64,000 bases of DNA from Candidatus Gottesmanbacteria bacterium (GCA_023245415.1 JAHFKJ010000004.1:2798-66797), one strand, 5' to 3'; shown: positions 24,941-46,851, counted from the stretch's first letter. Notes: generated from the letters alone by a model not told the origin. Numbers and translations: made by a program.

Positions 24941-25155
24941 TCAATACCAAAACGCAAACCAGAATACAGACCCGACTAGAAATAGCCAAGGCGACGCTAA
25001 TAAAAAATAGTAAACTGGGCTTGCTTCATTCACAGTTCTATTCACACTCCAGTATTGTTGTCCTTACCATATCAGGTGATGAGGCTAATATTACATTTAC
25101 AACTAAAGGTGATATATTTTTACTCAGGTAATTTATAACTTTATTACAACCCAAA

Positions 25156-25572
25156 CTATGAATACATCCGTTTACTATGAAATGAATTTTCCACAAGCGT
25201 TGCCAATATTTTTTGGTCCACATCGGAAAGTTTATTAATATACAAACATCCACCGCCTTCTTTGTGTTTGCCAAGTTTAGTAAGTATGTCTTTATTTTTT
25301 TCATTGCCGTGCATAATATAAAGGGTTAAATTTTGTTTTCTGGGCGAAAATCCAACTAATTGCCAATCTCCTTCTTGTCTACTTCTTTCCGATTTGTAGT
25401 GATATTTTCCAAACCCTACAATGCTTGATCCCCACATAACAGGTTTTTCTCTGGTGATTTTTGTAAACATTTCAAGAAGGACAAGACTATCTACTCTTTT
25501 TTGTTCTGGCTCAATCGTATTTAAAAAATCTTTGGGATCCTGATCTGTTGGTTTTGTTTTTGGTTCTGCCAT
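25156..25572 (-). CDS. DUF1801-like protein
   Basis: 138 aa; VMWGSSIVGFGKYHYKSERSRQEGDWQLVGFSPRKQNLTLYIMHG pattern. Paralogous N-terminus at 17100-17290. Confidence 0.5.
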   Translation of the reverse strand: MAEPKTKPTDQDPKDFLNTIEPEQKRVDSLVLLEMFTKITREKPVMWGSSIVGFGKYHYKSERSRQEGDWQLVGFSPRKQNLTLYIMHGNEKNKDILTKLGKHKEGGGCLYINKLSDVDQKILATLVENSFHSKRMYS

Positions 25573-25754
25573 AAAGCAATTATATCAACGGCTCAATTGT
25601 AGTAAAAATTGGACACCTCAGAAACTTTTGTTTTTACTTTTGAATAATGGATATAAAAATAATTTTAGAAAATTTACACGAAAGCTCAAAACTTAATAAA
25701 AATTATTCTTCAATATAATTTTGATTACAAGTCTAAAGTGATCTTATCTTAACT

Positions 25755-26426
25755 TCAGTATGATCCTATTTTGAAGGGTTCAGACGGTTCGTAAGTTGCA
25801 ATTATTACTCCGGTTGAGGTGATTTTTGTGTCAACCGGTTTAAAGCGCTGGGGACGAGTACCTTCCGCGAATAATTTTTTGCCGATGCCCAACGTCACAG
25901 GAAATGTCCAGATGTACATTCGATCTATTAAGTGGTGCCTAAGGAGCGTTTGTATAAGATTGCCGCTACCCCATACCCACAAGTCGGGACCTCCGCCAGC
26001 TGGCGGATTAATTTTCAGCTTTTTTATTTCCGAAACTACATCTCCGCCTGTCCTGAGCGACCCGCCCTGAGTCTTGTCGAAGGGAGTCGAAGGAGTGATA
26101 AGTATGGAATTGTTCCAAGAAAGTTTAAAAGGTTTATGTGAAACAACATACTTCTTCGTGCTATTCCACGGCTTAGCTATACGAGGTTCTTGTTTATCAG
26201 TTGGCCAATAACTCGCAAAAATTTCGTAGGTGCGTTTTCCCAAGAGTAGTTCAAAAGGAATAGCCATGAAGTCATCCAAAATCTTGTCCGCCACTTCGTC
26301 CCCGTAGTTCCCGCCTAACTGCCAACCTCCGTACTTAAATCCGTTTGAAGTATCTTCCTCCGGTCCTCCCGGAGCCTGCATAACCCCGTCAAGGGTAACA
26401 AATGTTGTTGTTATAATTTTTCTCAT
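25755..26426 (-). CDS. dihydrofolate reductase family protein (RibD C-terminal-like), paralog A
   Basis: MRKIITTTFVTLDGVMQAPGGPEEDTSNGFKYGGWQ... is the typical RibD_C/YwjB-type DHFR-like N-terminus; ~85% aa identity to 35093-35710. Confidence 0.8.
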   Translation of the reverse strand: MRKIITTTFVTLDGVMQAPGGPEEDTSNGFKYGGWQLGGNYGDEVADKILDDFMAIPFELLLGKRTYEIFASYWPTDKQEPRIAKPWNSTKKYVVSHKPFKLSWNNSILITPSTPFDKTQGGSLRTGGDVVSEIKKLKINPPAGGGPDLWVWGSGNLIQTLLRHHLIDRMYIWTFPVTLGIGKKLFAEGTRPQRFKPVDTKITSTGVIIATYEPSEPFKIGSY

Positions 26427-26487
26427 ATCAAAATATCTAACATTTAATGGCTCCACCTGATGGAAAATACCAGAACTTATTTCCTAA

Positions 26488-27045
26488 CTACTTAACCAAC
26501 CGAAAAGTCATGCTCGTTCTAACACGGGTAATTTCTTCAGTTTTAGTTCTTTCAAGCTTTATCTTATCTGTGTCTATATTTTCAAATAGTTTTAGTCCTT
26601 TTCCAAGAAGAACAGGCATAATATCTATCTGTAATTCATCACATAACCCCGCATTAAGGCATTGCTGAATCGTGCTTGCACCTATCACCTGAATATCTTT
26701 GTCACTTGCTGCTTTCTTTGCCTGAGAAATAGCACTCTCAATACCATCAGTTACAAATGTAAATGTTAGTTTGTCATTTCCTTTGGGATACTTTGCTGGA
26801 GGTGTATGTGTCAAGACAAAAATGGGAGCTTGAAATTCATAAGTCTCGTTAGCCCACGAAAATGGGTCTGCCATCTCATACACATATCTCCCCATAATAA
26901 CAGCTCTTGTGTTTTTAATCATTTCCTGAAAAGTTGGAGCATCATGGAGTTCACTAAAATCTGAATACAGCTTTTCTACGCTTCCTGCTGAATCGTTAAT
27001 GTATCCGTCCAAAGACATACTCATTCCAGCAATTATTTTCCCCAT
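26488..27045 (-). CDS. dihydrofolate reductase family protein (RibD C-terminal-like), paralog B
   Basis: MGKIIAGMSMSLDGYINDS...; ~93% identical to 36776-37336; start at Met 27045. Confidence 0.8.
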   Translation of the reverse strand: MGKIIAGMSMSLDGYINDSAGSVEKLYSDFSELHDAPTFQEMIKNTRAVIMGRYVYEMADPFSWANETYEFQAPIFVLTHTPPAKYPKGNDKLTFTFVTDGIESAISQAKKAASDKDIQVIGASTIQQCLNAGLCDELQIDIMPVLLGKGLKLFENIDTDKIKLERTKTEEITRVRTSMTFRLVK

Positions 27046-27079
27046 GATGAAATTATAACAGAAGGCTCGAACAGTCCAA

Positions 27080-27310
27080 TTACTTATCAAAAACTATTTT
27101 TCCGTTTTTACATATAACTTGTATCCCTGAATTTGTTTGAAAACGTTCCTTGTTTTTCAACTCGATGAACCCTTTACCATCATCATAAAGGCACCCATTA
27201 CCTATTAACCAGTTATTCCCTAAAAAAACCAATACAAGAAATGCTACAAAGAATAATACAAGTAATGTACTTAGTATTAGAAGTACATGTTTTCGATTTT
27301 TTTTCACCAC
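27080..27310 (-). CDS. small hypothetical membrane protein
   Basis: 76 aa, one TM; the gene sits between ~30-bp direct repeats (27050-27085 and 27311-27342) that occur only once upstream of the paralogous locus at 37321. Confidence 0.4.
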   Translation of the reverse strand: MVKKNRKHVLLILSTLLVLFFVAFLVLVFLGNNWLIGNGCLYDDGKGFIELKNKERFQTNSGIQVICKNGKIVFDK

Positions 27311-27738
27311 CTAATTATAGCAGAGGTTCGAACAGTCCAACAAAGGGTATAAAAAAAATGAGGCTAATTTTATTGGCTCGAAAAATAGACCGCTTCCCGA
27401 GAAACAGACTGGATTACGGAATAAGAATTTCCTGAATTTACAATGAAGTAAGCACAAGTTAAAGTTAAGACAATTTACTTTTGAACAAATTAGTTACCAA
27501 AGAAACTTCGAAAATATCAGGCATTTAATTTTAAATAGAAAGAATGTGTTAAATCGGTAGGTGTCTAGCTATTTCACCCGGGGGGTGGGATTACACCAGT
27601 GTCAATATTCCTAGACATCTCCTAAATGTCAATGGGTGAAAATCACTATATCGCTTTAGATTTTATAAAAAGTCAAGATTAAAGTCTCAAACACTCGCAC
27701 TCATCCTAGAACTCATAATTACTATATAATAAGTTTAT

Positions 27739-27996
27739 ATGTCAACAACTGATGACACATTTTCAATTGGGACTAAAGTTAAAATTCTCAGTGATCCAGA
27801 GTCTGGACCTGGTCCATGGCCAGCTCAGCCTACGGGAACTATCATTTCCGACGCAGAAATAGTAGATGGAAGAAATGGACCTCTAAATACATACTGGGTT
27901 CAATTTGATGAACCTCAATATGATACCGACAGAAGTGGTCCTTATTCAAAATCTCAAGTATTAGAAAAGTATCTTATGGTCCAGGGACGGTCCTAA
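27739..27996 (+). CDS. hypothetical protein; C-terminus (QGRS*) encoded by repeat copy A
   Basis: 85 aa ORF; last 4 codons lie inside the 55-bp repeat. Confidence 0.4.
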   Translation: MSTTDDTFSIGTKVKILSDPESGPGPWPAQPTGTIISDAEIVDGRNGPLNTYWVQFDEPQYDTDRSGPYSKSQVLEKYLMVQGRS

Positions 27997-28039
27997 AACT
28001 AACCGTCACAACAATCTAAAAATAGCATAGTTTTATTGG
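27984..28039 (+). repeat. 55-bp island repeat, copy A (gggacggtcctaaaactaaccgtcacaacaatctaaaaatagcatagttttattgg)
   Basis: Direct sequence match to copies B-E; core GGACGGTCC palindrome plus GACGGT/ACCGTC inverted arms. Confidence 0.9.
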
Positions 28040-28112
28040 ATCCCCCGGACGGTTGCTACTCGGACTTTAAGGGAATACCTGTTTACTTGGCAAGCCACTG
28101 TATAATACCTTC

Positions 28113-28865
28113 ATGTGTGGATTTTACGCCAGAGCAGAACTTACTCCTACTGACTTTCAAAAACTCTATGGAGTGGACGATATTGATGATGCGCTACTTT
28201 CTCCGCGGTACAATATCCGACCCGGAACAGTAAATGTCGTGGTCACCCGCAACTCACCGAATAAGGCACAAGGGATGCTCTGGTCTTATTTACCCGATTG
28301 GCCAGGATTTCCGGAAAGCAGAGCAGTTATTAACGCACGAATTGAAAGTATAAAGGAAGGCAAGTCTTTCTTTAAAAAAGCGTTTCTATCACAAAGGTGT
28401 ATTGTCCCTGCGTCTCAATGGGTGGAGTGGGCACCAGTGTCAGGAATCAAAATACCTCATGCATTTAAATTGAAGGGTAGGGATAATTTTTCTTTTGCTG
28501 GGCTGTGGAGTGAATATACCAATCGGAATGGCAAACGAATTAAGGGCTACTGCATTATCACTACCGAACCCAATCCCCTCGCATCCAAAGTTCATAATCG
28601 ACAACCCGCAATTTTAAGAAAAAGTGATGAGAATACATGGCTTGATCCCGATGAAAAAGATATGGTCACTCTTTTGAAATGCCTCGACGTTTACCCGCAA
28701 TCTGACATGGAAGCATACCCAATAGTCAGAGATTTGAGCGAAAATAGTCCAGATATTCTAAAACCTATTACTAAAAATCAGCTCGAAACTCAAATAGCTA
28801 AAAAGCCAAAACTTGCAAAACGATTGAAAACTAAGATACCTTTTGGACAAGTACAATTGGTTTAA
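28113..28865 (+). CDS. SOS-response-associated peptidase (SRAP/YedK/HMCES family)
   Basis: MCG start with catalytic Cys2; RYNIRPGT, AGLWSEY, IITTEPN...HNRQPAIL motifs. Confidence 0.8.
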   Translation: MCGFYARAELTPTDFQKLYGVDDIDDALLSPRYNIRPGTVNVVVTRNSPNKAQGMLWSYLPDWPGFPESRAVINARIESIKEGKSFFKKAFLSQRCIVPASQWVEWAPVSGIKIPHAFKLKGRDNFSFAGLWSEYTNRNGKRIKGYCIITTEPNPLASKVHNRQPAILRKSDENTWLDPDEKDMVTLLKCLDVYPQSDMEAYPIVRDLSENSPDILKPITKNQLETQIAKKPKLAKRLKTKIPFGQVQLV

Positions 28866-29123
28866 TTTTAAAAATCTCTTGACTTGACTCCCCAATATTA
28901 GCGTACTTCGAACGTATTTTACTGAAGGTGAAAAGGATTTACAACCGATTTTTGTTTAGTCGGTCTGTACGCAATGGATGATAGTTCGAACTAATTATAC
29001 ACAATCGTAGTTATATTGCGGGGGTTATGGTTCGATTATCCTCACCATCCTGAGCTTGTCTAAGGATTTACCCTGAACGAAGCTGAACGACACGCCAGTC
29101 CACCTCTGGCGGAAAAATAGATC

Positions 29124-29573
29124 CTAATTTTCTTTTACTTGTACGATACGTTCATAGAAAACTTTCGGTTCAATAATCTGTAACCGCTTAAGTGGAGGAT
29201 GACTTCTGAGAATCAAAAGATCTTTATCCCCGGTAACCAGATAGTCTGCCTTACCACCAAGTGCACAAGTAATTATTTTGGCATCTTTCGGATCACGGAT
29301 TGCTACAGGTGAATGTGGAATAGGTGTAATCATTTTAGCTTTGCGTTTAAATAAATTGAGAAATGCGGCGATTTTTTTGTCGGTAAGGTGGTACTTCGCA
29401 GTTAATTTTGTACGTTTAAGTACCTCTTCAACTTCTATAAATAAACCCTGAGTGCTTATGATTAAAAAGTTGTTTTCCCGCCACAATTCAAGAATTAAAT
29501 AGGGGAATCCACGCTCAAGGATGATACCACTGACGAAAACGTTAGTATCAATCGTTACTCTGAGCTTTGTCAT
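29124..29573 (-). CDS. PIN-domain toxin (VapC-like)
   Basis: 149 aa; TIDTNVFVSG N-terminal acidic PIN motif; overlaps upstream antitoxin gene. Confidence 0.7.
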   Translation of the reverse strand: MTKLRVTIDTNVFVSGIILERGFPYLILELWRENNFLIISTQGLFIEVEEVLKRTKLTAKYHLTDKKIAAFLNLFKRKAKMITPIPHSPVAIRDPKDAKIITCALGGKADYLVTGDKDLLILRSHPPLKRLQIIEPKVFYERIVQVKEN

Positions 29574-29865
29574 ATAACTCTTGTCGAACTTGTTCCGTAA
29601 TCTCAGTTATTTCTTTATACACTTCGTCTGGATTTTTATCTCGGTTTTTCTTGCGGATGGCATCAATCATAGTAAAAGCTGCTTGTTCTTGCTGTAGTTC
29701 GTTGTATTTGTCCAACATCTCCAAACTGATAATCGCCGCTTGTGGAGCATTATTGGTCATCACGACTACTGGCCGTTTGGTCTTTTTGACCCGAGCAAAA
29801 ACTTTTTTATACCCGCGCTGAATTTCGCGGGCAGAAATAGTGGATGGAAAAGTGTATGTCAACAT
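29548..29865 (-). CDS. Phd/YefM-type antitoxin
   Basis: 105 aa; KRPVVVMTNNAPQAAIISLEMLDKYNEL matches Phd/YefM fold pattern; translationally coupled to PIN gene. Confidence 0.6.
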   Translation of the reverse strand: MLTYTFPSTISAREIQRGYKKVFARVKKTKRPVVVMTNNAPQAAIISLEMLDKYNELQQEQAAFTMIDAIRKKNRDKNPDEVYKEITEITEQVRQELYDKAQSND

Positions 29866-30028
29866 ACATACCAGTATAGAAGAATTTTAACTGTATGTCA
29901 AGTTGATGACAAATTTTCTAAAAATGCAGCTGGTTATTTTGAGGGTTATACATAATATACCTGCTGAATATATTTGAGACATTGAGCTTAATAGAATGTA
30001 ACAATAGTACATTGGGGTTTATCCCATA

Positions 30029-30754
30029 TCAGTTGTTAGCCGAGCTTGTAAACTCTAAACCTGATATTCCTCTATACCGTATACGTTCTGGGAGACTGTT
30101 GATTCCTCGCGGATATTTCAGCATAACGCGTTTATACGATGGTGCTAAAATTGTCTCCGATTGTTGTGCAACAGCATGATGGAGAAAATGTGCTTCGGTT
30201 GCCTCAGCCCTTGGGTTAATGTTCGGCTGATCGACAGTCAACCTGCCATTTGCCATGTCCCGTACATGAGAACAAATCCAGGCCATTGTGGCTAGTGCCT
30301 CAATCGGTTTGGTTTGTGCTTTAACAATAAATTCAGGCGGTATGAGTACGTACGCTACTTCTTCCACCTGTTGTTTGCCTTTAGTCGCCGCAAATAAGAC
30401 GTGTGGTTCGTCATGTTTGCTTTGCATTGTGAGAGCTAATTGGGGAGGCATACCTAGCTGAATTGCTGCAGCAATCATATTATCGGTAAGCGCCGTAGCT
30501 ACCCGGAGCTGATTCATTATCCACCAAGCGGTTGTTCCAACTTCCTGCATATACTGATCATGCCCTCTGTTGGCAAAATAAGCTACCCCTGCTGTGAAGA
30601 AATCACTGGTTGCTTGGGCTACCTTTTCCCAAGGAGCATCTCTCACATGTTCTATTGTGTTACCAACCGTATAGTGGGTTTTCACCACTACATTAAATAC
30701 ATCTACAAGACGCTCACTTGAAGGCAAATATGAATTTCCATCTTCAACAGGCAT
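30029..30754 (-). CDS. hypothetical protein (GC-rich, probably foreign)
   Basis: 241 aa ORF; local GC ~50% versus ~36% surroundings. Confidence 0.45.
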   Translation of the reverse strand: MPVEDGNSYLPSSERLVDVFNVVVKTHYTVGNTIEHVRDAPWEKVAQATSDFFTAGVAYFANRGHDQYMQEVGTTAWWIMNQLRVATALTDNMIAAAIQLGMPPQLALTMQSKHDEPHVLFAATKGKQQVEEVAYVLIPPEFIVKAQTKPIEALATMAWICSHVRDMANGRLTVDQPNINPRAEATEAHFLHHAVAQQSETILAPSYKRVMLKYPRGINSLPERIRYRGISGLEFTSSANN

Positions 30755-31285
30755 ATATCAATAGTTGTTAAAACTTATGAATCAGTAGAATGTGGAAGGA
30801 TAACAAAAGTTTCTAGGTTTGTCAATATATAGGTTATTATATAATTAACATTAAACTGTAATTATGAGGCTAATTTAAGGATTAATATGTCGATTAATAT
30901 TTTCTTATAGGTCGTCATTATAGAAGTAACATTCTATCTTAGAACTTACATTCAAACTATTCTGGCTTAAGTAATTTCTGATCGTCGTTATACGGATCGT
31001 TAACACGTGTACTGATCCTTTATGCCTGCATGTTTGATACGTCATAATGCTTTAAGAGTGAAAAAAGTGTGGCAATCTGAGTGATTTCCATTCTGGGATT
31101 GGTATGTGCCTGCACCTCAGTAGATTCTTCCGCTCCCCCGTACAATTGCTACTCTGACATTGAGGGAACATCTGTTTGACTCTCTTAACATGAAAGTATA
31201 TCAGAAGTCTTACTCTAATTTGAAGTAGAAGTGATTTAAATTGTTGCAAATATCTAACTCAGCCTAGTGGAGGATGTTCGGAATT

Positions 31286-31873
31286 TTAGCTTTTAGCAAT
31301 TGAGCTCATCCATTTGACAAATCGCTGTTCCTGGTTCAAATTACCTATCCAAGGTACTTTTAAAACTCTCGGATCGTTGAATGCTGATCCCCCTCTAAAT
31401 CCATTTACCTGTTCTGATACAGCAATAAAACCATGCTTATATCCATGGGGGCGTAAACGATAATAATCTACTCGAGCGGCTTGTCCTATACTTAAGGTTG
31501 GCTCATTTGAATACTTTTTAGTGGGAATGTGTACTACTCCTACAGCCTGACTAAATGAATCGGTAAATCCAATAGTATTTCTATCGAGGTTCACTAGTAC
31601 GAGCGCGTTATGATTTTCAAACACCTGTTGAATTACTCGAGTATTTGGAACATATTTGACAATATCCCATTCCCTTAGTTTACCAAGCACTGTCAGAGTA
31701 TTATGTTGTTGTCCCATTGTCTCATCCGCTCGATCAAACCCAAATGATTCCAAATAGTCTGAAATTTGTTCCTCAAAATTTAATTCGGCAAAATCAACCT
31801 CAACACCAGTTTGACCTTGTGGTGGCGAAATTTCTGTTCCGTCTTCACTTAGCATGGTTAAATTGCACCACAC
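31286..31873 (-). CDS. hypothetical protein (GC-rich, probably foreign)
   Basis: 195 aa ORF with elevated GC, adjacent to previous. Confidence 0.45.
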   Translation of the reverse strand: MWCNLTMLSEDGTEISPPQGQTGVEVDFAELNFEEQISDYLESFGFDRADETMGQQHNTLTVLGKLREWDIVKYVPNTRVIQQVFENHNALVLVNLDRNTIGFTDSFSQAVGVVHIPTKKYSNEPTLSIGQAARVDYYRLRPHGYKHGFIAVSEQVNGFRGGSAFNDPRVLKVPWIGNLNQEQRFVKWMSSIAKS

Positions 31874-32048
31874 TTCAGTTTGAGTTAGTTTTGATGCTAC
31901 TTTGCACCCCTGGTAGGATTCTCTTCGGCTATTTCAGCTCTCATTGAACTTGCCGAAGTGCTCCCCCTAAAGGACTTTCTGCAACTACAAGTTAGAGTTT
32001 GATTTAAGTTTAAACTAAAATCAAAATGGTCTTTGAAACGGTTCAACT

Positions 32049-33239
32049 TCAGCCAGCCTTAGTCTGATTAAATCTCTTAAAAGCGAACAAAATCATTAGT
32101 AATAATCCAAGAATTAAGGCATTAAACTGCAAAGCTATCCTAATTCCAAAACGGTCGCTTATCATACCCAAAAACGGAATAAATAAGGCATAAATCAATC
32201 TTCTGACTAAACTTTGAAACGACAAAATAGTCGCAGCCCTTTCTGGGGGAATTAAAGTTAAAGTCTTTCCACTTATTAAAGTTTGGTTTACAACAACAAT
32301 CATACTAAATATTGAAAACAATGGAATAACAAAGATACTTGGAAACGCCCCCAAAATAAACATTGAAAATATAGCAAGTAAACCAATAACAACAAAAGCT
32401 TTATCTTTTAACCACAAATCAATCTTATAAGTTAAAAATTTTGAACAATAAGCGGAAAACAAACTGAAAGAGGCAAAAATAAAACCAAAATATACAATCG
32501 GAACTTTAAGCATCTGGAAATAGGGTTGGGGAAACCAATAAGCCGCAAATACCAAAGAGTTAATTGTAGCAAAATATAAAGTGAGCCAGAGAACTTTGCT
32601 ATTTGATTTTACTATCTGAACACTTTCTTTGATTATTCGAAGATAATTTGTTTTTTCTTCCCTTGGCAATTCATTCTCGGTATTTGAAAACGAGAAACCA
32701 ACTATTAATGCTATAAAAGTTGAAATGCCTGTTGCAATAAGAGTTAAACCCAACGAGACTGAACCAATAAATCCACCACCGATATTCCCCAGCGCTTGAA
32801 AGATTTGACTTAGCGCTCTAACTCCACCCTCTGTTTTATTGAAATCCTTATCTTTACCAAGAGATTTTAGGGTTTGATGGATAAAAGCCCTATCTGCACC
32901 AGAAATAAAAGCCATACCTGCAGCTATAGTCAATTCTCCAATAGCAAACTGCCAAAAATGGGAACTTAAACCATACCAAAATAGACCAATACTAAAAAAT
33001 AGTGAGCCGAAAATCAGACTTATCTTTTTACCGAAATAGTCAGCAAAACCGCCTGTTGGCAATTCCAATATCAATGCTCCAATAGCATAAATTGATTGCA
33101 AAGTAAAAATTTGGGTCATATTCAAACCCTTTGACTGCCAAAAAAGAACAATAACTGGAAAAAAGAAGGCAAGGCTGTTAAACGCCTCAAACAAGTAGTA
33201 TTTCTTTATGTTACCCTCCAAACGAGCGTCATTGTCCAT
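32049..33239 (-). CDS. MFS transporter
   Basis: 396 aa, 12 predicted TM segments, MFS-like loop motifs. Confidence 0.8.
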   Translation of the reverse strand: MDNDARLEGNIKKYYLFEAFNSLAFFFPVIVLFWQSKGLNMTQIFTLQSIYAIGALILELPTGGFADYFGKKISLIFGSLFFSIGLFWYGLSSHFWQFAIGELTIAAGMAFISGADRAFIHQTLKSLGKDKDFNKTEGGVRALSQIFQALGNIGGGFIGSVSLGLTLIATGISTFIALIVGFSFSNTENELPREEKTNYLRIIKESVQIVKSNSKVLWLTLYFATINSLVFAAYWFPQPYFQMLKVPIVYFGFIFASFSLFSAYCSKFLTYKIDLWLKDKAFVVIGLLAIFSMFILGAFPSIFVIPLFSIFSMIVVVNQTLISGKTLTLIPPERAATILSFQSLVRRLIYALFIPFLGMISDRFGIRIALQFNALILGLLLMILFAFKRFNQTKAG

Positions 33240-33516
33240 ACTTCTAATTATAACTTAATGTTAAATAATGAAAAAATAGAGATATAACGAAGTTTTCCTG
33301 AAAAAGTAATGTCTATGATATATGAAGAAAAACTTGCAAACGTAGTCTTCAAACTAAAAAAAAGAAAGAAAAATTACAAGAAAGGGTTACAAATTATCCA
33401 AACGGTTTTTGAAACCTTTGACATTCAACCGGTATACGCCTAAAGATTGGTTACCGAATTAACCAACTGTATAGGCACTTTATGCTAGAATGCCCACAGC
33501 TTAATATAATCACTTT

Positions 33517-36243: not shown

Positions 36244-36257
36244 AGCGGGTGGTCTAG

Positions 36258-37643: not shown

Positions 37644-37845
37644 TATGAGAAGAAAGCCTAAAAGGTAGTGATGAAAAGTCAGTTTGGTTTCAATAATCGC
37701 TGTGGTTATCTTTGGAGTATGGGAAAAAAAAGAGTATTGTAAATAAATTATTGCCCGAGTGGTAAAAGTTGATCTAATCTTTTTCTTTCATGAGGGTAGT
37801 ATATCAAAGGTGCAAATGTCCAACTCGGGATGAAGAAAATTCAAG

Positions 37846-37985: not shown

Positions 37986-38001
37986 TTGCAGTAAGATATG
38001 A

Positions 38002-38268
38002 TTACTGTTTTTTTAATATAGCCAAAGTAGCCTCAACAGAAGGATTATTGATGTTATCCAATCTAACCCTCTCTTTAAATTTCTGATGAAGCGGAGTTAA
38101 AAATTCGTCTGCCCAAGAAGGGGTTAATACTATAACACCAGTAAAATCCACAATAACTTCTTCTTCTGTAGATATCTGGCCTAGCACCGGTTGAAATGCT
38201 AACCACGCTTCTTTTCCTGAAGGACGTGATACTAAAGTTGTACCGAATTTCTTTAATTGTATGGTCAT
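38002..38268 (-). CDS. STAS-like (DUF4325-type) small protein, putative anti-anti-sigma/partner-switching component
   Basis: 88 aa; profile and size resemble STAS-like DUF4325 proteins encoded beside GHKL ATPases; overlaps upstream gene by 4 nt. Confidence 0.5.
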   Translation of the reverse strand: MTIQLKKFGTTLVSRPSGKEAWLAFQPVLGQISTEEEVIVDFTGVIVLTPSWADEFLTPLHQKFKERVRLDNINNPSVEATLAILKKQ

Positions 38269-39023: not shown

Positions 39024-39065
39024 ATTATACCAAATCTATGCAAATCTATGCAAGCACTTAATTTT

Positions 39066-39212
39066 GAGGCTAAAATGATAGTGTTCCCCGCGCTTGACGA
39101 CGTCATAACCACGGATTTCATACCTACTATACAAACCTTTCAGCATGTAGGATACAGAGGAGAAATGCGGCAAAGGTAGATTAAAGTTTAGAAATTACAA
39201 ACCTCTCATCCA
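39066..39212 (+). repeat. ~130-bp direct repeat, copy 2
   Basis: see copy 1. Confidence 0.85.
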
Positions 39213-39283
39213 TTTACTCAAATCGATCAATAGAAACTGCATCAATGGATATTTTGTCATAAGGATATGATCCAAGGACGGTC

Positions 39284-39320
39284 CTCAAACTAATTGTTCC
39301 TAATGCGCTTGAAAGAAACT
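39284..39320 (+). repeat. 55-bp island repeat, copy D (degenerate: 18-bp core ggacggtcctcaaactaa retained, rest diverged)
   Basis: aaggacggtcctcaaactaattgttcctaatgcgcttg. Confidence 0.7.
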
Positions 39321-39822
39321 GAGTTAAAAATTCCCTGTTGAAAAAGAAATTGAATACTAATTGCAACATATGAAAATTAGTATAATGCCATTATGGCACT
39401 AAAACAACAACTTTTTGTCCGTAAATATTTGGAATTCAGGAATGCAACAAAAGCGGCTCTTTAGATTTATGATGTAAAAAACACCAACCCTGCTGGTGCG
39501 ATAGGTTGCAATAAATTAAAAAATATTAAGATCAAAAGTGAAATAGACAGGATTCTTGAGGCTGAAGAGTCTATACTCTTAACGTACTGTTAAATTAATT
39601 AATAACGTGATGAAATATTGTTCTGGACGAGAACAGCTTAAAGCAATAGATATAGTATATAAACTATTTGGTTATTTGTAACCCCCCATATACCCCCTTA
39701 TATTTTAATTAAAATTCTGAATAAGTGTCTCAAAAATACGGCTAATATTTTCTGGAAAAAATGGTCTGCATTACGGTGATATAATACGGATGAAAGAGAT
39801 TTATATTTAAATTAATATTAAA

Positions 39823-41145
39823 ATGAAGACTAAATGGAAACTCACATTAACAATAATTTTTTCCTTAACCCTATTTTTCTTCTCTTTTAATGTCAGTACC
39901 TCTTTTGCTAAAGATTGGAAAATTAATAAAATAATTTCAGGTAATGTAAATCCTTCTTATTTACAATTAGTGTCTGCAAAAAATGAATACGGTTTAGTTT
40001 GGGAAGATAATCGAGAAGCTGATTTAGAACTATATTTTTCCAGGATAAACAATAGTGGAGTAAAAATTGGTCAAGAAATAAAACTGACTGATGATACAGA
40101 GCACGACGAAACACCTGCTTTAGTTTGGAATGGTAAAGATTATGCTTTATTTTGGAGTCATAGCCGCAGTCAAATATATTTCACTCAGTTTAAAGAAAAT
40201 GGAAAGAAAATCATTGATAATAAATCATTAGAAGTTCATTCAAAGGGTTATGCCATCCATGTATCAGCAGTGTGGAATGGTGAAGAATACGGTGTCGTTT
40301 GGTGGGATGTACGGGATGCACCAGCTTGTAATCCTCCTGGTACAAGAGGTAGGGCTTTTTTTGCTAGAGTTGATAAAGATGGCAACATGATTGGTGAAGA
40401 AATACCTGTAAGTGATGCTTTTAGTAATCCTTGGCAAGATTATCACCCTTTAATGGTCTGGGATGGGGAAAATTATGCAATTTTTTGGAATGATAGCCGA
40501 GAAGGTGGAGAATGTACTGGTGGAGTTGGAGATGGAAATATTTACATGGCTAAAGTAAGTAGAAATGGAGAGAAAATATTAGGTGATATAAAACTACAGA
40601 GTAACGAACCTAGTCCACAACTTTGGGATATAGAGTGGGATGGTGTGAATTACGTCATCGGATATAACGGCAGAATTGCACAAGGTCATTTAGCAAAGAT
40701 GGACACTAATGGAAATACAATTCTAGTTGATCTTCCGATCAATTCCGACAATCAAGGGGGATCACCAATGATATCAGCTTATGATGATAAATATTATATT
40801 GCTTGGAGTGATTTTAGAGATCGTACTCCTGAAACTTTTTATAACACTGAAATTTACTATACAATCACTGATAAAAATGGAAATAAATTAATACCTGAAA
40901 CAAGAATTACCTATCAAGATGATTCACAAGCAAGAAACACTAAGATAACCTTCATTAAAAAATCAAAAGGAATAGCATGGTTAGATCTTAGAAGTGGTTT
41001 ACCTGAAGTCTATTTTGCATCAGAGAGTAATTATAAAATACCTTTGCCTAGTTTTACTTTTCAAATCCTTCCAACTATTCCCACACCTCCATCAAGTCCA
41101 TCCGCCCCTCCGATTCCATCTATGCTTCCATTTCCTACTTTTTGA
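39823..41145 (+). CDS. secreted repeat protein (beta-propeller-like W-x-G-x-Y repeats) with Pro-rich C-terminus
   Basis: Signal peptide; ~8 repeats of WNGKDYALFW / VWNGEEYGVVWWD / VWDGENYAIFWND / EWDGVNYVIGYNG type; ends PSSPSAPPIPSMLPFPTF. Confidence 0.55.
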   Translation: MKTKWKLTLTIIFSLTLFFFSFNVSTSFAKDWKINKIISGNVNPSYLQLVSAKNEYGLVWEDNREADLELYFSRINNSGVKIGQEIKLTDDTEHDETPALVWNGKDYALFWSHSRSQIYFTQFKENGKKIIDNKSLEVHSKGYAIHVSAVWNGEEYGVVWWDVRDAPACNPPGTRGRAFFARVDKDGNMIGEEIPVSDAFSNPWQDYHPLMVWDGENYAIFWNDSREGGECTGGVGDGNIYMAKVSRNGEKILGDIKLQSNEPSPQLWDIEWDGVNYVIGYNGRIAQGHLAKMDTNGNTILVDLPINSDNQGGSPMISAYDDKYYIAWSDFRDRTPETFYNTEIYYTITDKNGNKLIPETRITYQDDSQARNTKITFIKKSKGIAWLDLRSGLPEVYFASESNYKIPLPSFTFQILPTIPTPPSSPSAPPIPSMLPFPTF

Positions 41146-41238: not shown

Positions 41239-41505
41239 CTAATTTATTCCCAAAAACTCTTTTATCATCATTCGTAACGTTGTTTTTCCTTTGGTGGTTT
41301 TGAAATATTCTTCTCTGCGTTTCGCATCTTTTTCATTGCGATACGCTTCATAATGAATGAGCTCAAAGGGAATATAGGGTTTTGTAGAAAGTTCAGAACC
41401 AGAATTGTGCTCTTGTACACGTCTTTTTAGATCTGAAGTAAAACCGACGTAAATAAAATCTTTTGTTAGACTACTTAGAACATACACGTAATAGAAATTC
41501 GACAT
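41239..41505 (-). CDS. GIY-YIG nuclease family protein (short; C-terminally truncated paralog of 45791-46249)
   Basis: FYYVYVLSS...IYVGFTSDLKRRVQEHN GIY-YIG motif; nucleotides 41266-41370 ~95% identical to 46010-46115. Confidence 0.75.
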   Translation of the reverse strand: MSNFYYVYVLSSLTKDFIYVGFTSDLKRRVQEHNSGSELSTKPYIPFELIHYEAYRNEKDAKRREEYFKTTKGKTTLRMMIKEFLGIN

Positions 41506-41509
41506 GAGT

Positions 41510-41670
41510 AATAGTGAGGACGCACCAGTCGTGACGAACCATACGATTCATCACTCCGGCGCATCCCAACGCGCACAACAGTTTTAGTCACGCTATCGTG
41601 GCGAAAAGGTATACCGTCGGGTATACCTCGTAGCGGTGCACCGTATGGTGCGCTGCTCGCCACCACGCCG
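41510..41670 (-). other. degenerate copy of group I intron 3' half + tRNA-Asn 3' region (intron/tRNA remnant)
   Basis: Minus-strand segments GCGCACCATACGGTGCACCGC, GAGGTATACCCGACGGTATACC and GATAGCGTGACT parallel the intron's GACGCACCATGCGGTGCATC, GTAGAGACTATACACCCGATCC and GAGATAGTCCAGTCC at 46378-46575; a GGTTCG T-loop-like piece follows. Confidence 0.35.
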
Positions 41671-41785
41671 ATTACACTATATCAGATTTTCAATAGGGAA
41701 ACGGTTGCCAGACTTAGGATCCAACTCGAAGTAGCACAAAAACTAGCCAATAATCCGCTCTATTATGAAGTTGTGGAGGTAACCA

Positions 41786-42144: not shown

Positions 42145-44586
42145 TTATTTTAACCATCTTCGAACTACATTTAGCCGATAGACTAATTTAAACGTTTCGA
42201 CAATGAAAAACATAAGAACCGATAAACCTATTGCAATGAGCCAATAATTCAAACCTAGATTACTTAACCCAAAAAATTGCATCATAGTGGGTGTTGAGAA
42301 TGGCAACACCTGTAAACTAAACCCGGCAAGAACGGCAATTATCAGCCATTTGTTTTCAAAAAGATGATTTCTCCAAAATGGAGTCAATAATGCTCTTACG
42401 GAAAAAACATAAGCCAGAGAGTTAAGCCCCAAGGTAATAAAAACTACAGAACGAGCCATGATAATATCGCCAGACATTTTATATACGATAACGAATGACG
42501 ACAGCGCTATTAAACCCGCCACTAAGCTCACAAAACCTATGAGAGCAATCATCCATCTATTCACTAAGCGCTCTCCTGACGGACGGGGTTTCTCTCTCAT
42601 AATACCCGTCCTTTTAGGATCAATTGTTAATGTTAAATTTGGGAATCCGTCTGAAATCAAATTTATCCAGAGAATCTGGACAGCGCTTATTGGTAAGGGT
42701 AATCCAAGTACTATGCCTCCAACAACAACCAGAATCTCTGCAAAAGCATCACACATCAGATATAGGATTATTTTTCTGATGTTTTCAAACATTACTCTTC
42801 CTTCTTCTATCGCTCCTATTATCGTAGAAAAGTTAGAATCTAGAAGAACTAAATCTGCTGATTCTTTAGCAACGTCAGTCGCTTCACCTACCACAATACC
42901 AATATCAGCCTTGTGTAATGCCGGTGCGTCATTGACTCCGTCACCCATCATTGCCACAATTTCCCCATTTCTTTTCAAAGCTTCCACTATCATTAGCTTT
43001 TGATCGGGGGTGGTTCTGGCAAATAGCCGTATTGATTTTACTTTTTGTACCAATTCCTCAACGGTTAGCTTCTCTAACTCGTCGCCTGTCATTATTTCCT
43101 CTTTATCAACTGGTATTCCTAACTCGGATAAGACAAACTCTGAAGTTTTGGGGTAATCCCCCGTAATCACGGTGGTTTTGATACCTGCCGTCTTAGCTAA
43201 ATCAAGAGCTTCTTTAACTCCCGAACGAACCGGATCTGTAAAAGCCAATATGCCTACCCAGGTAAGATTTCCTTTAGCATCAGAAGTTTCTATACTTTTT
43301 TTCTCAACGGAAACTTCTTTTTTAGCAAGACCAATAAGTCTTTTCCCTTGTTTGCTTAAATCATCAATCGTTGAAACGATATCCTCTTTTTCTTTTTCTG
43401 ACAACGTTGTCCATTCCAGTAAAAGTTCAGGCGCTCCGTTCACAAAAAGCACATTATTATCTTTATACCACTGATGGAGACTGACAAAAAAACGTTCTCT
43501 TGGAGAGAAAGGTATGCTGTCAAGTCTGGGATGTTCGGAAACAAAGTCTTTAATAATTGTTCGTCCCCACTCAAAGGCAGAGATGACAACTGGGTCATCT
43601 AAATCGTTTGCTAAAAGTACCTGTTGTGCTAATTCCATTTCGTTTCCGATATGGTCAACGACCTCCATTTTCCCTTGGGTTAAAGTACCAGTTTTATCTA
43701 CACAGATGACCGTTACCCCGCCAAGTGTTTCAGCTGCCGATAGTTTTCTCACTAATCCCCTGCGCTTAACGATCTTTTGCATACCGATAGCCAAAACTAC
43801 GGTAAGGGAAACAAGAAGCCCTTCCGGAATGCTGGATACTGCCAAAGCGACAGAAGTCACGAAGATTTCCGTCACATTAAAACGGTACAAAATGCCAATA
43901 ATGAACACTATTGCTGTTAGCACTCCTACTATAATTACCAATTGTTTACTGAATATTTTGAGTTGGCATTGAAGGGGAGAATCCTCCTCCTGTTCTTGTA
44001 TTTGTTTAGCAATCGCCCCCATTTTTGTAAATGCTCCTGTTGTTTCAACAATCATCACTCCTTGCCCTGAAGATATTGTCGTACCCATAAATACGCTATC
44101 ATCCTTAACTTTGTTAACTGGAACACTTTCACCAGTAAGTACCGCCTCATCAATATAGAGACGGTTAGCAAACGTAATTTTTCCATCAGCTGGTATTTTT
44201 ATTCCCTGATCCAAAATCACCACATCACCGGAAACAATTTCTGATGTGTTAATGGTGCTTCTTTTTCCTTCCCGGACAACATTAGCCTTGTTTGTAACGT
44301 AGTGTTTTAGGGCTAAGAGAGCGTTAGTGGCCTTACTTTCTTGGATAAACCCCAAAATGGTATTAATAAATACTGCTAAGAAGATGATAAGGGAATCGGA
44401 ATAATGCCCAATAATCAAAGTAACAAAAGCTGCAAAACCCAAGACATAGATAAGAGGACTTCTAAGCTGTTGAACAAACAAAGAAAACTGACTGGGTGGT
44501 GGTTTTTCGGGCAAAATATTCAGACCGTCCTGAAGCTGTCTCTTTTTTACTTCCTCATTTGATAATCCTTGTTCATTTGGATACAT
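42145..44586 (-). CDS. cation-transporting P-type ATPase (type II, Ca2+-ATPase-like)
   Basis: 813 aa; DKTGTLT phosphorylation motif, TGDYPKTS-type nucleotide domain, GDGVNDAPAL hinge, 10 TM. Confidence 0.9.
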   Translation of the reverse strand: MYPNEQGLSNEEVKKRQLQDGLNILPEKPPPSQFSLFVQQLRSPLIYVLGFAAFVTLIIGHYSDSLIIFLAVFINTILGFIQESKATNALLALKHYVTNKANVVREGKRSTINTSEIVSGDVVILDQGIKIPADGKITFANRLYIDEAVLTGESVPVNKVKDDSVFMGTTISSGQGVMIVETTGAFTKMGAIAKQIQEQEEDSPLQCQLKIFSKQLVIIVGVLTAIVFIIGILYRFNVTEIFVTSVALAVSSIPEGLLVSLTVVLAIGMQKIVKRRGLVRKLSAAETLGGVTVICVDKTGTLTQGKMEVVDHIGNEMELAQQVLLANDLDDPVVISAFEWGRTIIKDFVSEHPRLDSIPFSPRERFFVSLHQWYKDNNVLFVNGAPELLLEWTTLSEKEKEDIVSTIDDLSKQGKRLIGLAKKEVSVEKKSIETSDAKGNLTWVGILAFTDPVRSGVKEALDLAKTAGIKTTVITGDYPKTSEFVLSELGIPVDKEEIMTGDELEKLTVEELVQKVKSIRLFARTTPDQKLMIVEALKRNGEIVAMMGDGVNDAPALHKADIGIVVGEATDVAKESADLVLLDSNFSTIIGAIEEGRVMFENIRKIILYLMCDAFAEILVVVGGIVLGLPLPISAVQILWINLISDGFPNLTLTIDPKRTGIMREKPRPSGERLVNRWMIALIGFVSLVAGLIALSSFVIVYKMSGDIIMARSVVFITLGLNSLAYVFSVRALLTPFWRNHLFENKWLIIAVLAGFSLQVLPFSTPTMMQFFGLSNLGLNYWLIAIGLSVLMFFIVETFKLVYRLNVVRRWLK

Positions 44587-44606
44587 ACGTTAAATACACA
44601 CTTCTT

Positions 44607-45548
44607 TTATTTAATCCCTAAGATAAATAGGTAAGTAAAAAATAGTAATAGTAAAACTATTCCAACCCACTTTGGAATTGGCTTACCACTGTAACGTCGC
44701 AGAATAAATACAAAACAAATCGTTGTTAAGATTAACCACACCCAATCCATTATTGGTACAGTCATAACAGTGGAAAAAAGCATAGCCACGCCACCAATAA
44801 ACAATAAGTTATAAATATTGCTTCCAATGATATTGCCAATGGTAATTTTCTCTTGGTGCTCCTCCTGAGTAAAAAAAGTAGTAAATAGTTCCGGTAAAGA
44901 AGTAGCCACTGAAGTTAAAGACAACCCCAGAATCGTTGTTGAATAACCAGTGAGGATAGATATGCTCTCAACCGAAGTAACGATTAAGAAACCTCCTAAA
45001 ATAATTCCTGCGATTGATAATATGACCGAAACTATTTTTCCAAAAGTGAGTTTTTCATTGTTACGTTTCTTGAATTGTGCCGAGTCCTCATGACTTCGCC
45101 CAAACATGCCCAATTCATATTCTCCAATGGTAAATAAAATCGCCAACACAAGAAGAAACAGCCCGGAAAATAGAGAAGGGAGCTTCATCAACTGCAGAAT
45201 TAAAAAGAGTGCGGTTATACCCAAGAGAATCAATGCATTACGCTGTGTCTTGGTTGTGCCAATGCGCAGTTTTCCAATTAAAACGCCCGCTGGTAAAACC
45301 ATAAGAATATTGACGATATTTGAGCCAACGATGTTGCCAAACGCTAGACCGGCGTCATGCTTCAGAACAGCTATTGTGGATACAGTTAACTCCGGTAGTG
45401 ATGTGCCAAAAGCTACAATAGTAGTTCCAACAATAAGCGGTGAAATACGAATGACTCGAGAAATTTTTTCAACTAATTTAACGAGTGTATAAGTAGAAAA
45501 TAAAAGAACTGCAATACCTATGCAAAACTTTATTAACAAATCAATCAT
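44607..45548 (-). CDS. Ca2+/Na+ antiporter (CaCA/YrbG family)
   Basis: 313 aa; two alpha-repeats GTSLPELTVS and ATSLPELFTT. Confidence 0.8.
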   Translation of the reverse strand: MIDLLIKFCIGIAVLLFSTYTLVKLVEKISRVIRISPLIVGTTIVAFGTSLPELTVSTIAVLKHDAGLAFGNIVGSNIVNILMVLPAGVLIGKLRIGTTKTQRNALILLGITALFLILQLMKLPSLFSGLFLLVLAILFTIGEYELGMFGRSHEDSAQFKKRNNEKLTFGKIVSVILSIAGIILGGFLIVTSVESISILTGYSTTILGLSLTSVATSLPELFTTFFTQEEHQEKITIGNIIGSNIYNLLFIGGVAMLFSTVMTVPIMDWVWLILTTICFVFILRRYSGKPIPKWVGIVLLLLFFTYLFILGIK

Positions 45549-45619
45549 ATGTTCATTATTATGAGTTTATGCTTGAAATTCTTACGATTGAATAAAAAGT
45601 TAACGACTAAGATAAATCT

Positions 45620-45675
45620 AAGGACGGTCCTCAAACTAACCGTCACAACAATCTAAAAATAGAACAATTTCATTC
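45620..45675 (+). repeat. 55-bp island repeat, copy E
   Basis: aaggacggtcctcaaactaaccgtcacaacaatctaaaaatagaacaatttcattc. Confidence 0.9.
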
Positions 45676-45790
45676 ACTCCTCCTTGGCTGAAATCTCTTC
45701 AGCTTCGGTCAGTGGTTTGTACCTACACCCACTCAGGAACTATACTGCTAAACATGTTTAGTGTAACGAACGAAGTGTTTATAGTACATA

Positions 45791-46249
45791 TTACAATGAT
45801 TCATTCACTTCTTTAACCTGTTGTTTCGTAATCCAACCTTTTCCTTTACACGTTAAACAAATAGCTACCATGCCGGAGGTACGTACTCCACTACGGGTAA
45901 AAAACGATTTAGTCGGGGCTAATCTTGTGCCCTGACATATTGGACAAACCATTGCATCTGGAGGTTTTTGAGACAAATCCTTCTTGAAGGAAGAAAAGTA
46001 TTCCTGAAGCATCATTCGTAACGTTGTTTTTCCTTTGGTGGTTTTAAAATATTCTTCTCTGCGTTTCGCATCCTTTTCATTGCGATACGCTTCATAATGA
46101 ATGAGCTCAAAAGGAATGAAGGGCTTTGTAGAAAATTCGGAACCAGAATTGTGCTCTTGTACACGTCTTTTTAGGTCTGAAGTAAAACCGACGTAAATAA
46201 ATTCTTTCGGTATACTACTTAGAATATACACGTAATAGAAATTCGACAT
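45791..46249 (-). CDS. GIY-YIG nuclease family protein with C-terminal zinc-ribbon (CPICQ...CLTCKGKG)
   Basis: MSNFYYVYILSS...YVGFTSDLKRRVQEHN; start at Met 46249 (the table start 46279 would run into the tRNA 3' flank); lies immediately 3' of tRNA-Asn. Confidence 0.75.
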   Translation of the reverse strand: MSNFYYVYILSSIPKEFIYVGFTSDLKRRVQEHNSGSEFSTKPFIPFELIHYEAYRNEKDAKRREEYFKTTKGKTTLRMMLQEYFSSFKKDLSQKPPDAMVCPICQGTRLAPTKSFFTRSGVRTSGMVAICLTCKGKGWITKQQVKEVNESL

Positions 46250-46339
46250 GAGTAATAGTGGAGACGTGCCAGACGGCACATCCCTGCCTCACCATTCTTG
46301 GCGAAGCGATGAACCTAAGCGCCAGCGAATGGTTCGTTG

Positions 46340-46609
46340 CTCCCCCGGCAGGATTCGAACCTGCAACCTTCTTCTTACAGAAACCCTCTTGTTACCAAAA
46401 GGACTGGACTATCTCATTCCGCCAGATGCGGATCGGGTGTATAGTCTCTACACATTTATGATGCACCGCATGGTGCGTCAATTTAGCTCGGGATTGTCCA
46501 ACACCTATAAAGTGTAGGAGTCCCCCGAATTAGCCCGATTTTTCAAGTCGCCTTACGACGAAAAGCTGCCTTATGACAGGAAGCCGCTCTACCGTTGAGC
46601 TACAGGGGA
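46340..46609 (-). tRNA. tRNA-Asn(GUU) interrupted by a group I intron in the anticodon loop (between nt 35 and 36)
   Basis: Minus strand: acceptor TCCCCTG/CGGGGGA (U1-A72, discriminator G as in E. coli tRNA-Asn), D-arm GCTC-AACGGTA-GAGC, anticodon stem GCTTC/GAAGA, spliced loop CUGUUAA, T-arm GCAGG-TTCGAAT-CCTGC. Confidence 0.7.
46378..46575 (-). ncRNA. group I intron (~198 nt, no ORF)
   Basis: R-like element GTAGAGACTATAC and S-like element GAGATAGTCC (P7 GACTA/TAGTC); P1 formed by exon CTGU with IGS GCAG, with U.G at the splice site; terminal G before the 3' exon; P8-like hairpin CCGCATCTGGCGG. Confidence 0.6.
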
Positions 46610-46851
46610 ATATTTTGTTTTATAAATTGTCTACCGCGATAACTTTTTAACTGTTTTTCTCGTTTAAGAGCTTGCTGACGTGATTGGACTTGTTCTTGAT
46701 AAATAATTACCCAATCACCTTCCAATCTCGCAGTATAACTATTTTTAAATGTTTTTTCGTTATGTAAAAGTTCTCTAGTTTCTATATCTTCGGTTTGCCC
46801 TATATAAAACTTTCTATGCCTTTTGTTGTAAATTGCGTACACAATAAACAT
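46600..46851 (-). CDS. GIY-YIG nuclease family protein (third paralog, more divergent)
   Basis: MFIVYAIYNKRHRKFYIGQTEDIETRELLHN GIY-YIG motif; stop codon overlaps the tRNA 5' end by ~10 nt. Confidence 0.7.
   Translation of the reverse strand: MFIVYAIYNKRHRKFYIGQTEDIETRELLHNEKTFKNSYTARLEGDWVIIYQEQVQSRQQALKREKQLKSYRGRQFIKQNIPL

Follow-up and report, generated by a model that had tools for sequence, protein, structure and literature searches.

A stretch of 64,000 nucleotides (nt) from Candidatus Gottesmanbacteria bacterium (GCA_023245415.1, JAHFKJ010000004.1:2798-66797), here called the window, was analysed with regard to a region of about 21 kb, from 25000 to 46610, which an earlier note had described as a repeat-structured accessory island ending at a tRNA-Asn gene. 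Judged by the best matches of its P-type ATPase, the host belongs to the Microgenomates group of the Patescibacteria, or Candidate Phyla Radiation (CPR). Examination of recombinases, att sites, composition and gene order did not support the flagged 21 kb as a single mobile island. Instead, the region probably consists of a conserved backbone next to the tRNA gene (41.2-46.6 kb) and a fast-evolving, dispensable stretch (25-41 kb) that has grown in place and carries short repeats resembling repetitive extragenic palindromic (REP) elements. Thus, the accessory island stands in part: 25-41 kb is genome-specific, repeat-structured and of accessory type, and what does not hold is that the ~21 kb form one unit ending at tRNA-Asn.

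The flagged region lacks the hallmarks of an island integrated at tRNA-Asn

The earlier note had remarked that no integrase is present, and indeed neither an integrase nor a transposase was found in the scanned open reading frames (ORFs) of the window. Pfam and NCBIfam searches of essentially all window ORFs of at least 70 amino acids (aa) gave no site-specific recombinase, and the nearest approach to a recombination-protein match was a sub-threshold excisionase-type helix-turn-helix (HTH) in a MerR-like protein (27.4 bits versus a cut-off of 28.8). Att-like repeats were searched for using 14- to 20-mers from the tRNA 3' exon and tolerating 1-2 mismatches, and across the whole window these matched only the tRNA itself. 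The length-weighted GC content is 0.384 inside the flagged region, versus 0.394 to its left and 0.406 to its right, and the tetranucleotide distance is flat across 4-kb windows, without a compositional break. The comparison of GC content and codon usage between island and core, which the earlier note had proposed, thus gave no more than a small shift in GC content at third codon positions (GC3). With no recombinase, no repeat of the 3' exon, no break in composition, and tRNA-proximal genes that appear to be ancestral (see below), the claim that an island is integrated at, or bounded by, tRNA-Asn found no backing.

The left edge was supposed to be marked by a switch from core genes to cargo at ~25 kb. 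Such a switch is not visible, and the flank from 1 to 25 kb is as accessory-like as the proposed island, containing a BrnT/CopG toxin-antitoxin (TA) pair, MBL, FMN reductase, MazG, MarR and ArsR genes, a MacB/ABC/HlyD efflux set and a cyclase gene, together with folP and greA. Because accessory-type genes extend to at least 9 kb, the 25-41 kb block has no sharp left edge. Close by on the right of the tRNA gene are a ParE-like TA pair and an EamA transporter gene, and unmistakable core genes (rpoD and dnaG) begin at ~51 kb. The gene at the left boundary, h373 (23819-24940, - strand, 373 aa), has no Pfam domain and has homologues in Microgenomates that are 60-82% identical. For homologues with 62-82% identity, the neighbours differ from those in the window on both sides, even in the relative with 82% identity, so h373 cannot serve as a core anchor. 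In this lineage, synteny decays too fast for 'not shared with relatives' to delimit anything. Homologues of h373 with 45-48% identity are annotated from DPANN archaea (Woesearchaeota, Aenigmarchaeota and Nanoarchaeota), a distribution hinting that CPR bacteria and DPANN archaea share genes.

A conserved backbone adjoins the tRNA gene

Next to the tRNA gene, on its 3' side, the following genes were found:

42145-45548, - strand: Na/Ca exchanger and P-type cation ATPase, conserved backbone (Pfam and the loci of relatives)

The loci around the P-type ATPase gene (42145-44586) were compared in species-representative genomes, based on the 80 best of 552 matching stretches (L-numbers in this text denote single loci or contigs). 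These 80 best matches show 49-78% aa identity and come from metagenome-assembled genomes (MAGs) labelled Woesebacteria, Shapirobacteria, Gottesmanbacteria, Collierbacteria, Amesbacteria and WWE3. A Na/Ca exchanger gene adjoins the ATPase gene at roughly half of the 80 loci. A tRNA-Asn gene lies 4.5-8.4 kb upstream of the ATPase gene on the same strand in L011, L015, L016 and L021, with rpoD further upstream in L011 and L016, and dnaG as well in L016. The latter locus, from Collierbacteria, reads dnaG, rpoD, tRNA-Asn with an intron, fn3, HIT, MgtE, Na/Ca exchanger and ATPase, which is the order of the window, including tRNA-Asn followed by the Na/Ca exchanger and then the ATPase. Between tRNA and ATPase, these relatives have no integrase gene, just ordinary ones (in L011, FKBP, DEAD helicase and BipA).

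Conserved backbone thus makes up the 4.5 kb beside the tRNA gene, and the accessory block therefore does not abut the tRNA gene. The tRNA-proximal part of what had been listed as cargo, the Na/Ca exchanger and the ATPase, would by its gene order be ancestral. The same gene order in distant relatives, which the earlier note had named as a sign of ancestral rather than acquired content, was found for 42-46.6 kb and not for 25-41 kb. Independent short-read contigs from this population agree with the window to 99.98-100% over 38.6-60.5 kb, which excludes an assembly artefact for the right part of the flagged region. Exact-protein look-ups for strain variants returned just 100%-identical short contigs of the same population.

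The tRNA-Asn gene is split by a group I intron and flanked by GIY-YIG genes

The tRNA-Asn gene that had been placed at ~46.6 kb is real and is recognised once a 198-nt group I intron is removed, the spliced form being called as tRNA-Asn(GTT) by ARAGORN. When the whole window was scanned with default ARAGORN and with the default Rfam gathering scan, zero RNA genes were reported, and these empty scans were false negatives because of the intron and of speed filters. A targeted Rfam scan detected Intron_gpI (RF00028) at 46385-46590 on the - strand (69.9 bits versus a gathering score of 50, E 2.7e-17). The locus is composed as follows:

46576-46609, - strand: tRNA-Asn(GUU) 5' exon, 34 nt, ending in U, the same as nt 1-34 of the intronless L015 tRNA-Asn
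46378-46575, - strand: group I intron, 198 nt, between anticodon positions 35/36, ending in G (Rfam RF00028; homologous intron at the same site in L016)
46340-46377, - strand: tRNA-Asn 3' exon, 38 nt, with its 3' end toward the proposed island (spliced tRNA call; single copy in the window)
41239-41505, - strand: GIY-YIG gene #1, 88 aa, truncated paralog of #2 (Pfam; nt identity to #2)
45791-46279, - strand: GIY-YIG gene #2, 162 aa, Cys-rich in its C-terminal tail (Pfam), 60 nt downstream of the tRNA
46600-46851, - strand: GIY-YIG gene #3, 83 aa (Pfam GIY-YIG, 1.9e-11), with the real tRNA on one side and a degenerate duplicate of its 5' half on the other

Compared with the intronless homologues of two Gottesmanbacteria genomes (L015 and L021), the spliced tRNA-Asn has an identical splice junction and differs by four substitutions, all within both strands of the T stem. 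In intron mode, ARAGORN interpreted the unspliced region as a 94-nt 'tRNA-Asp' with a 177-nt intron, a call that was dropped since the 35/36 splice reproduces the intronless homologues exactly. The tRNA-Asn gene of L011 is likewise intronless, and the syntenic tRNA-Asn of the Collierbacteria MAG holds a homologous group I intron (L016, 5240-5523, 66 bits). Group I introns at position 35/36 in tRNA-Asn and in tRNA-Asp of Patescibacteria, missed by standard tRNA finders, have been reported, and in vitro self-splicing was shown for other members of this 35/36 class (PMC13011429). By its class, the intron in the window is presumably of the self-splicing type and one more example of the published kind.

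GIY-YIG genes #1 and #2 share 93% nt identity over 266 nt. The degenerate copy of the tRNA 5' half lies at ~46862-46911, where a partial match to the 5' exon near 46890 was computed and the full extent was read from the sequence. A GIY-YIG gene also follows immediately after tRNA-Asn in L021 (1570-1979), and in L004 and L010 a small GIY-YIG gene was seen between tRNA-Glu and tRNA-Lys (~12476-12954). The presence of GIY-YIG genes beside tRNA genes may reflect homing-type mobility aimed at tRNA loci.

The 25-41 kb block has probably been built up by duplications and insertions

Nearly all cargo genes listed in the earlier note could be confirmed with Pfam, which matched DUF1801, SRAP, PIN_3/Phd, MFS, Glyoxalase/VOC, DUF2200, P-type ATPase and Na_Ca_ex in the flagged region, as well as five RibD_C paralogs (at 25755, 26488, 33517, 35093 and 36776), and added to the list the three GIY-YIG genes and a DUF4325/MerR-HTH pair. 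Two items proved weak or without confirmation: 'DUF1059' is without any match in Pfam or NCBIfam, and the genes of the supposed GC-rich two-gene block have GC contents of 0.450 and 0.391, versus ~0.39 for the window genes overall. The block has the following structure:

25156-41145, no strand assigned: genome-specific accessory set, comprising DUF1801, five RibD_C genes, SRAP, PIN/Phd, two unknowns, MFS, VOC, DUF2200, the DUF4325/MerR module and a 440-aa unknown (Pfam; order not common to relatives)
25750-27379, - strand: segmental duplication copy 1, with RibD_C a1, RibD_C b1, the 76-aa ORF insertion and the upstream region (81-93% nt identity to copy 2, with indels)
35082-37408, - strand: segmental duplication copy 2, with RibD_C a2, an insertion, RibD_C b2 and the upstream region (nt comparison with copy 1)
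35711-36768: 1,058-nt insertion in the a-b spacer of copy 2, with a 109-aa ORF, REP-like copy 3 and DUF2200 (copy comparison)
27052-27340, no strand assigned: ~261-nt unit with a 76-aa ORF between direct repeats, absent from duplication copy 2
37844-39207, no strand assigned: two-gene module of DUF4325 (STAS-like) and MerR-HTH between ~135-nt direct repeats (Pfam and repeat search)

The duplication of the RibD_C pair measures ~1.6 kb. The ~30-bp direct repeats that had been noticed around the 76-aa ORF were recovered with a computed 17-nt core (27063-27079 and 27324-27340, 94%) and extend by eye to about 28 nt (27052-27079 and 27313-27340). The ~130-bp direct repeats were also confirmed, as repeats of ~135 nt with ~85% identity (~37844-37983 and ~39067-39207) around the DUF4325-MerR module. 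These ~135-nt repeats have retained an open frame, their substitutions being conservative (PEEVITADFMPIIQAFQHVGYRGE and LDDVITTDFIPTIQTFQHVGYRGE), which suggests that they are relic, duplicated fragments of a lost coding gene. The frame-keeping parts, at 37869-37955 and 39093-39179 on the + strand, read …VITADFMPIIQAFQHVGYRGE… and …VITTDFIPTIQTFQHVGYRGE…. The 'gaggctaattttattgg' motif, reported as a repeat family of its own, is weak by itself, with 3 matches versus 0.41 expected, and its four occurrences are part of two larger duplications. As it can be aligned to the tail of the five-copy element described below, a module of ~20 nt is present eight times on one strand between 27.3 and 45.7 kb.

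Upstream of the two RibD_C 'b' genes (27313-27379 and 37342-37408, - strand), a promoter-like TTGGAC...TATAAT pair was read by eye, which the promoter scan missed, probably due to the 15-nt spacer. The TATAAT -10 hexamer ends 1-2 nt before the start codon and would therefore give a leaderless mRNA. A role in defence was considered for the MerR/DUF4325 module and the unknown proteins, and was set aside since PADLOC matched the HTH domain only.

RibD_C 'a' has thousands of homologues with 65-82% identity, and those carrying organism names are from CPR lineages. In other CPR genomes they are singletons in unrelated contexts, with neighbours that differ in every relative examined. A foreign origin of RibD_C 'a' could not be shown by homologue search, the organism-labelled hits all being CPR. 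Most horizontal gene transfer (HGT) into Patescibacteria is reported to come from other Patescibacteria (PMC12455944), and would leave little compositional trace.

The short repeats resemble REP elements of RAYT-type transposases

The 55-bp repeat for which five copies had been reported was recovered with 5 matches versus 0.08 expected, all on the + strand (27984, 34089, 36257, 39275 and 45621). Four copies are ~72-75 nt long and one is a ~30-nt partial copy:

27974-28048, + strand: REP-like copy 1, with core GGACGGTCCT, GACGGT/ACCGTC hairpin and conserved tail, overlapping the stop codon of an 85-aa ORF
34082-34153, + strand: REP-like copy 2, overlapping the last codons of RibD_C 'c'
36246-36319, + strand: REP-like copy 3, within the 1.06-kb insertion that splits the duplicated RibD_C pair
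39267-39298, + strand: REP-like copy 4, core only, tail diverged
45613-45686, + strand: REP-like copy 5, between GIY-YIG #2 and the Na/Ca exchanger gene, hairpin z-score -2.9

All five are intergenic or overlap just the final codons of an ORF. The most conserved part is a palindrome, (A/G)GGACGGTCCT, followed by (C/A)AAACTA, with an invariant AGGACGGTCCT-type core in 5/5 copies, and a tail of ~50 nt is conserved in four of the five. No conserved fold, as RNA or DNA, was found on either strand, and the idea of an RNA structure for the element was dropped on this ground. A promoter or terminator role of the repeats was rejected as well, both scans being at chance level.

An exact 17-mer search of metagenomes returned 26 single matches. 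By our estimate, most 17-mer matches in metagenome and viral contigs, being single-copy, look like chance, and the informative contigs are L097 and L100 only. L097 (GC 0.375, CPR-like) has two inverted copies of the core, which tightly flank a gene for a 222-aa Y1 transposase (Pfam Y1_Tnp, 44 bits, cut-off 23). Its sole NCBIfam match is REP_Tyr_transpos, 'REP-associated tyrosine transposase' (RAYT), full-length with 72.4 bits and E 3.5e-20, just under the equivalog cut-off of 80. In L100 the core occurs five times, in the form of CGGAGGACGGTCCTCCG-type inverted doublets located after metK, directly upstream of another Y1 gene, and in frame inside the latter. This last doublet (GGAGGACCGTCCTCC...GGAGGACGGTCCTC, L100 1695-1740) lies inside the coding sequence of a RAYT-like Y1 protein, and lengthens the stretch from the N-terminal region to the HuH motif by about 15 residues.

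The window also contains a second REP-like family (TAGGTGTC...TTyyACCCnnGGGGTG), at 18068-18137, as a tandem repeat, and at 27558-27590 (+ strand). It aligns with 33-nt inverted repeats (5228-5260 and 5948-5980) that flank a Y1/RAYT-like gene in L083, a relative carrying the ATPase, and its member at 18 kb lies outside the proposed island. Transposases of the IS200/IS605 Y1 type use single-stranded DNA at the replication fork as their substrate, and their insertions show a strand bias. In the window the GC skew is negative in most 1-kb windows, and the cumulative skew falls almost throughout, so the occurrence of all five copies on the + strand fits Y1 transposition acting on single-stranded DNA. 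Taken together, the repeats are best read, by sequence likeness, as REP-like elements of RAYT-type Y1 transposases, and in the literature searched we found no description of REP/RAYT elements in Patescibacteria.

Other features of the window

Between the ATPase gene and GIY-YIG #1 there is a GC-rich stretch of ~170 nt (41506-41700, - strand) with three long hairpins, predicted to fold with -83 kcal/mol (z = -5.85, 0/200 shuffles equally stable). It gave no Rfam match, and a second copy was found neither in the window nor in the DNA of the relatives compared. The stretch is a candidate structured RNA or relic element. Adjoining rpoD is a 378-aa ORF (49343-50479, + strand) that is an ORFan, its sole match among 5.8 billion proteins being itself, and it was therefore of no help in the synteny comparison.

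How the region may have arisen

Gene content, repeats, intron, conserved backbone synteny and the lack of island hallmarks are direct observations, and they are most readily explained without a single mobile island. The backbone of 41.2-46.6 kb would comprise the intron-split tRNA-Asn(GUU), the small GIY-YIG genes, the Na/Ca exchanger and the P-type ATPase, with rpoD and dnaG a few kb beyond the tRNA. In the 25-41 kb stretch, the two-gene RibD_C pair would have been duplicated, one copy of the pair would have received the 1.06-kb insertion, a micro-insertion of ~260 nt with direct-repeat flanks of about 28 nt would have been added, a two-gene module may have become flanked by ~135-nt repeats of a relic coding fragment, and five same-orientation copies of the ~70-nt REP-like element would have accumulated. 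How the repeats dispersed, and in which order the duplications and insertions took place, we infer. A Y1 transposase whose gene lies elsewhere in the genome likely dispersed the element on single-stranded DNA, which would explain the one strand shared by all copies.

Several observations weigh against this explanation. The linkage of tRNA-Asn and ATPase was seen in 4/80 loci and is absent in the loci with the highest ATPase identity. Inside the flagged region, GC3 is slightly lower (0.323 versus 0.349 and 0.376, p=0.009), and RibD_C 'a' and DUF2200 are GC3 outliers (0.44-0.52). The best ATPase identity is 78%, a close relative is not available, and an empty-site comparison for 25-41 kb is impossible; a past horizontal origin of some or all of this block is still conceivable. 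As for the repeats, the 6-bp GACGGT/ACCGTC stem is kept in copies 1 and 5 only, leaving 3/5 without a hairpin, their clustering is modest (P=0.04 for span and 0.06 for shared strand), no Y1 gene was found in the window, and L097 and L100 were found via the element's own 17-mer, which entails an ascertainment bias.

The alternative closest to the earlier proposal, a ~21-kb island integrated at the 3' end of tRNA-Asn whose site-specific recombinase is lost or lies outside the window, we think very unlikely. The tRNA 3' end does face the region, the content is of accessory type and includes TA modules, genomic islands have been predicted in Patescibacteria genomes (PMC12455944), and there is the small GC3 shift. 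However, neither an integrase, nor a direct repeat of the 3' exon, nor a GC or tetranucleotide break was found, the left flank is equally accessory-like, and in four other Microgenomates genomes the Na/Ca exchanger and ATPase genes neighbour the tRNA with ordinary genes and no integrase in between, so that for 42-46.6 kb an island of this kind is already largely refuted. Acquisition on a smaller scale deserves more weight, although we still regard it as unlikely: one or more segments within 25-41 kb may have come from other Patescibacteria, beside rather than at the tRNA, by recombinase-independent homologous or illegitimate recombination, with REP-like copies at or near the junctions. This would agree with a gene order unique to this genome, with the GC3 of RibD_C 'a' and DUF2200, with the presence of REP-like copy 3 inside the 1.06-kb insertion, and with the reported origin of most HGT into Patescibacteria in other Patescibacteria (PMC12455944), which would give a faint compositional signal. 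Moreover, the 65-82% identity of the RibD_C 'a' homologues is as high as or above the rpoD identity to relatives (about 55-71%), although this conservation may reflect a slowly evolving enzyme. Against it speak the absence of a junction mapped on an empty site, the origin of some of the content by local duplication, and the position of REP-like copy 5 within the conserved backbone.

An integron-like cassette array, with small accessory genes between same-orientation recombination-site repeats, would account for five to eight short repeats in one orientation, two of which overlap ORF stop codons, and for a cargo (TA pair, DHFR-family and VOC genes) that is typical of such arrays. Yet no IntI-type recombinase was found among the window ORFs, the segments between the repeats are 2-6 kb long and hold several genes, on both strands, the repeats have no conserved attC-like hairpin, and one segment holds the ancestral ATPase. 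The cassette-array reading was rejected for want of IntI and attC structure, and we consider its chance close to negligible. A more speculative idea, to be seen as a long shot, is that the REP-like copies (five plus three ~20-nt tail modules), the micro-insertion and the 135-nt-flanked module are footprints of an integrase-independent gene accretion in ultra-small CPR genomes. RAYT-recognised elements, possibly together with the free-standing GIY-YIG nucleases encoded beside the split tRNA-Asn, would then create recombination or break-repair hot spots that capture and duplicate small cassettes. The reading that we prefer is still the conserved backbone beside a stretch grown in place.

For Patescibacteria, this case carries the caution that an accessory block beside a tRNA gene is insufficient to call a genomic island, since gene order in this group decays so quickly that nearly any region looks variable, and that a group I intron can hide a tRNA gene from standard tools. 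What is gained is one more 35/36 intron in tRNA-Asn with a homologue at a syntenic Collierbacteria locus, evidence for REP-like repeats linked to RAYT-type transposases in Patescibacteria, and a clear in-place expansion of paralogs (five RibD_C genes) in a streamlined genome.

Comparison with known systems

With tRNA-associated genomic islands, the region shares its position on the 3' side of a tRNA gene and an accessory cargo that includes TA pairs. It differs from them in that the window has no integrase, att repeats or compositional break, and that the tRNA-proximal genes are conserved neighbours in relatives. Sedentary chromosomal integron arrays likewise have same-orientation short repeats between small accessory genes, whereas the window has neither IntI nor attC structure, and its repeats separate multi-gene segments on both strands. 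Like regions of genomic plasticity, the flagged stretch has accessory genes, expanded paralogs and short repeats and loses synteny between relatives, with the difference that synteny in this lineage is poor nearly everywhere, so the region stands out less.

The element in the window resembles REP/RAYT systems in being short, extragenic and multi-copy with a palindromic core, and in the occurrence of its copies on one strand, as is expected for a mechanism acting on single-stranded DNA. In the metagenome contigs the same core is inverted around a Y1 gene (L097) or forms inverted doublets around one (L100). In contrast to bare palindromes or doublets, the copies in the window are singlets with a ~50-nt conserved tail, three of the five have no stable hairpin, and the window holds no RAYT gene. 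The intron matches those described in PMC13011429 (mSystems 2026) in tRNA, insertion site, phylum and failure of the tRNA finders, and nothing substantive differs. What the window adds are free-standing GIY-YIG genes on both sides of the split tRNA, the term 'GIY-YIG' being absent from the text of that paper. All that was found can thus be assigned to kinds already known, namely a region of plasticity with expanded paralogs, repeats of REP/RAYT-like type, an intron class already published, and small GIY-YIG genes beside tRNA genes.

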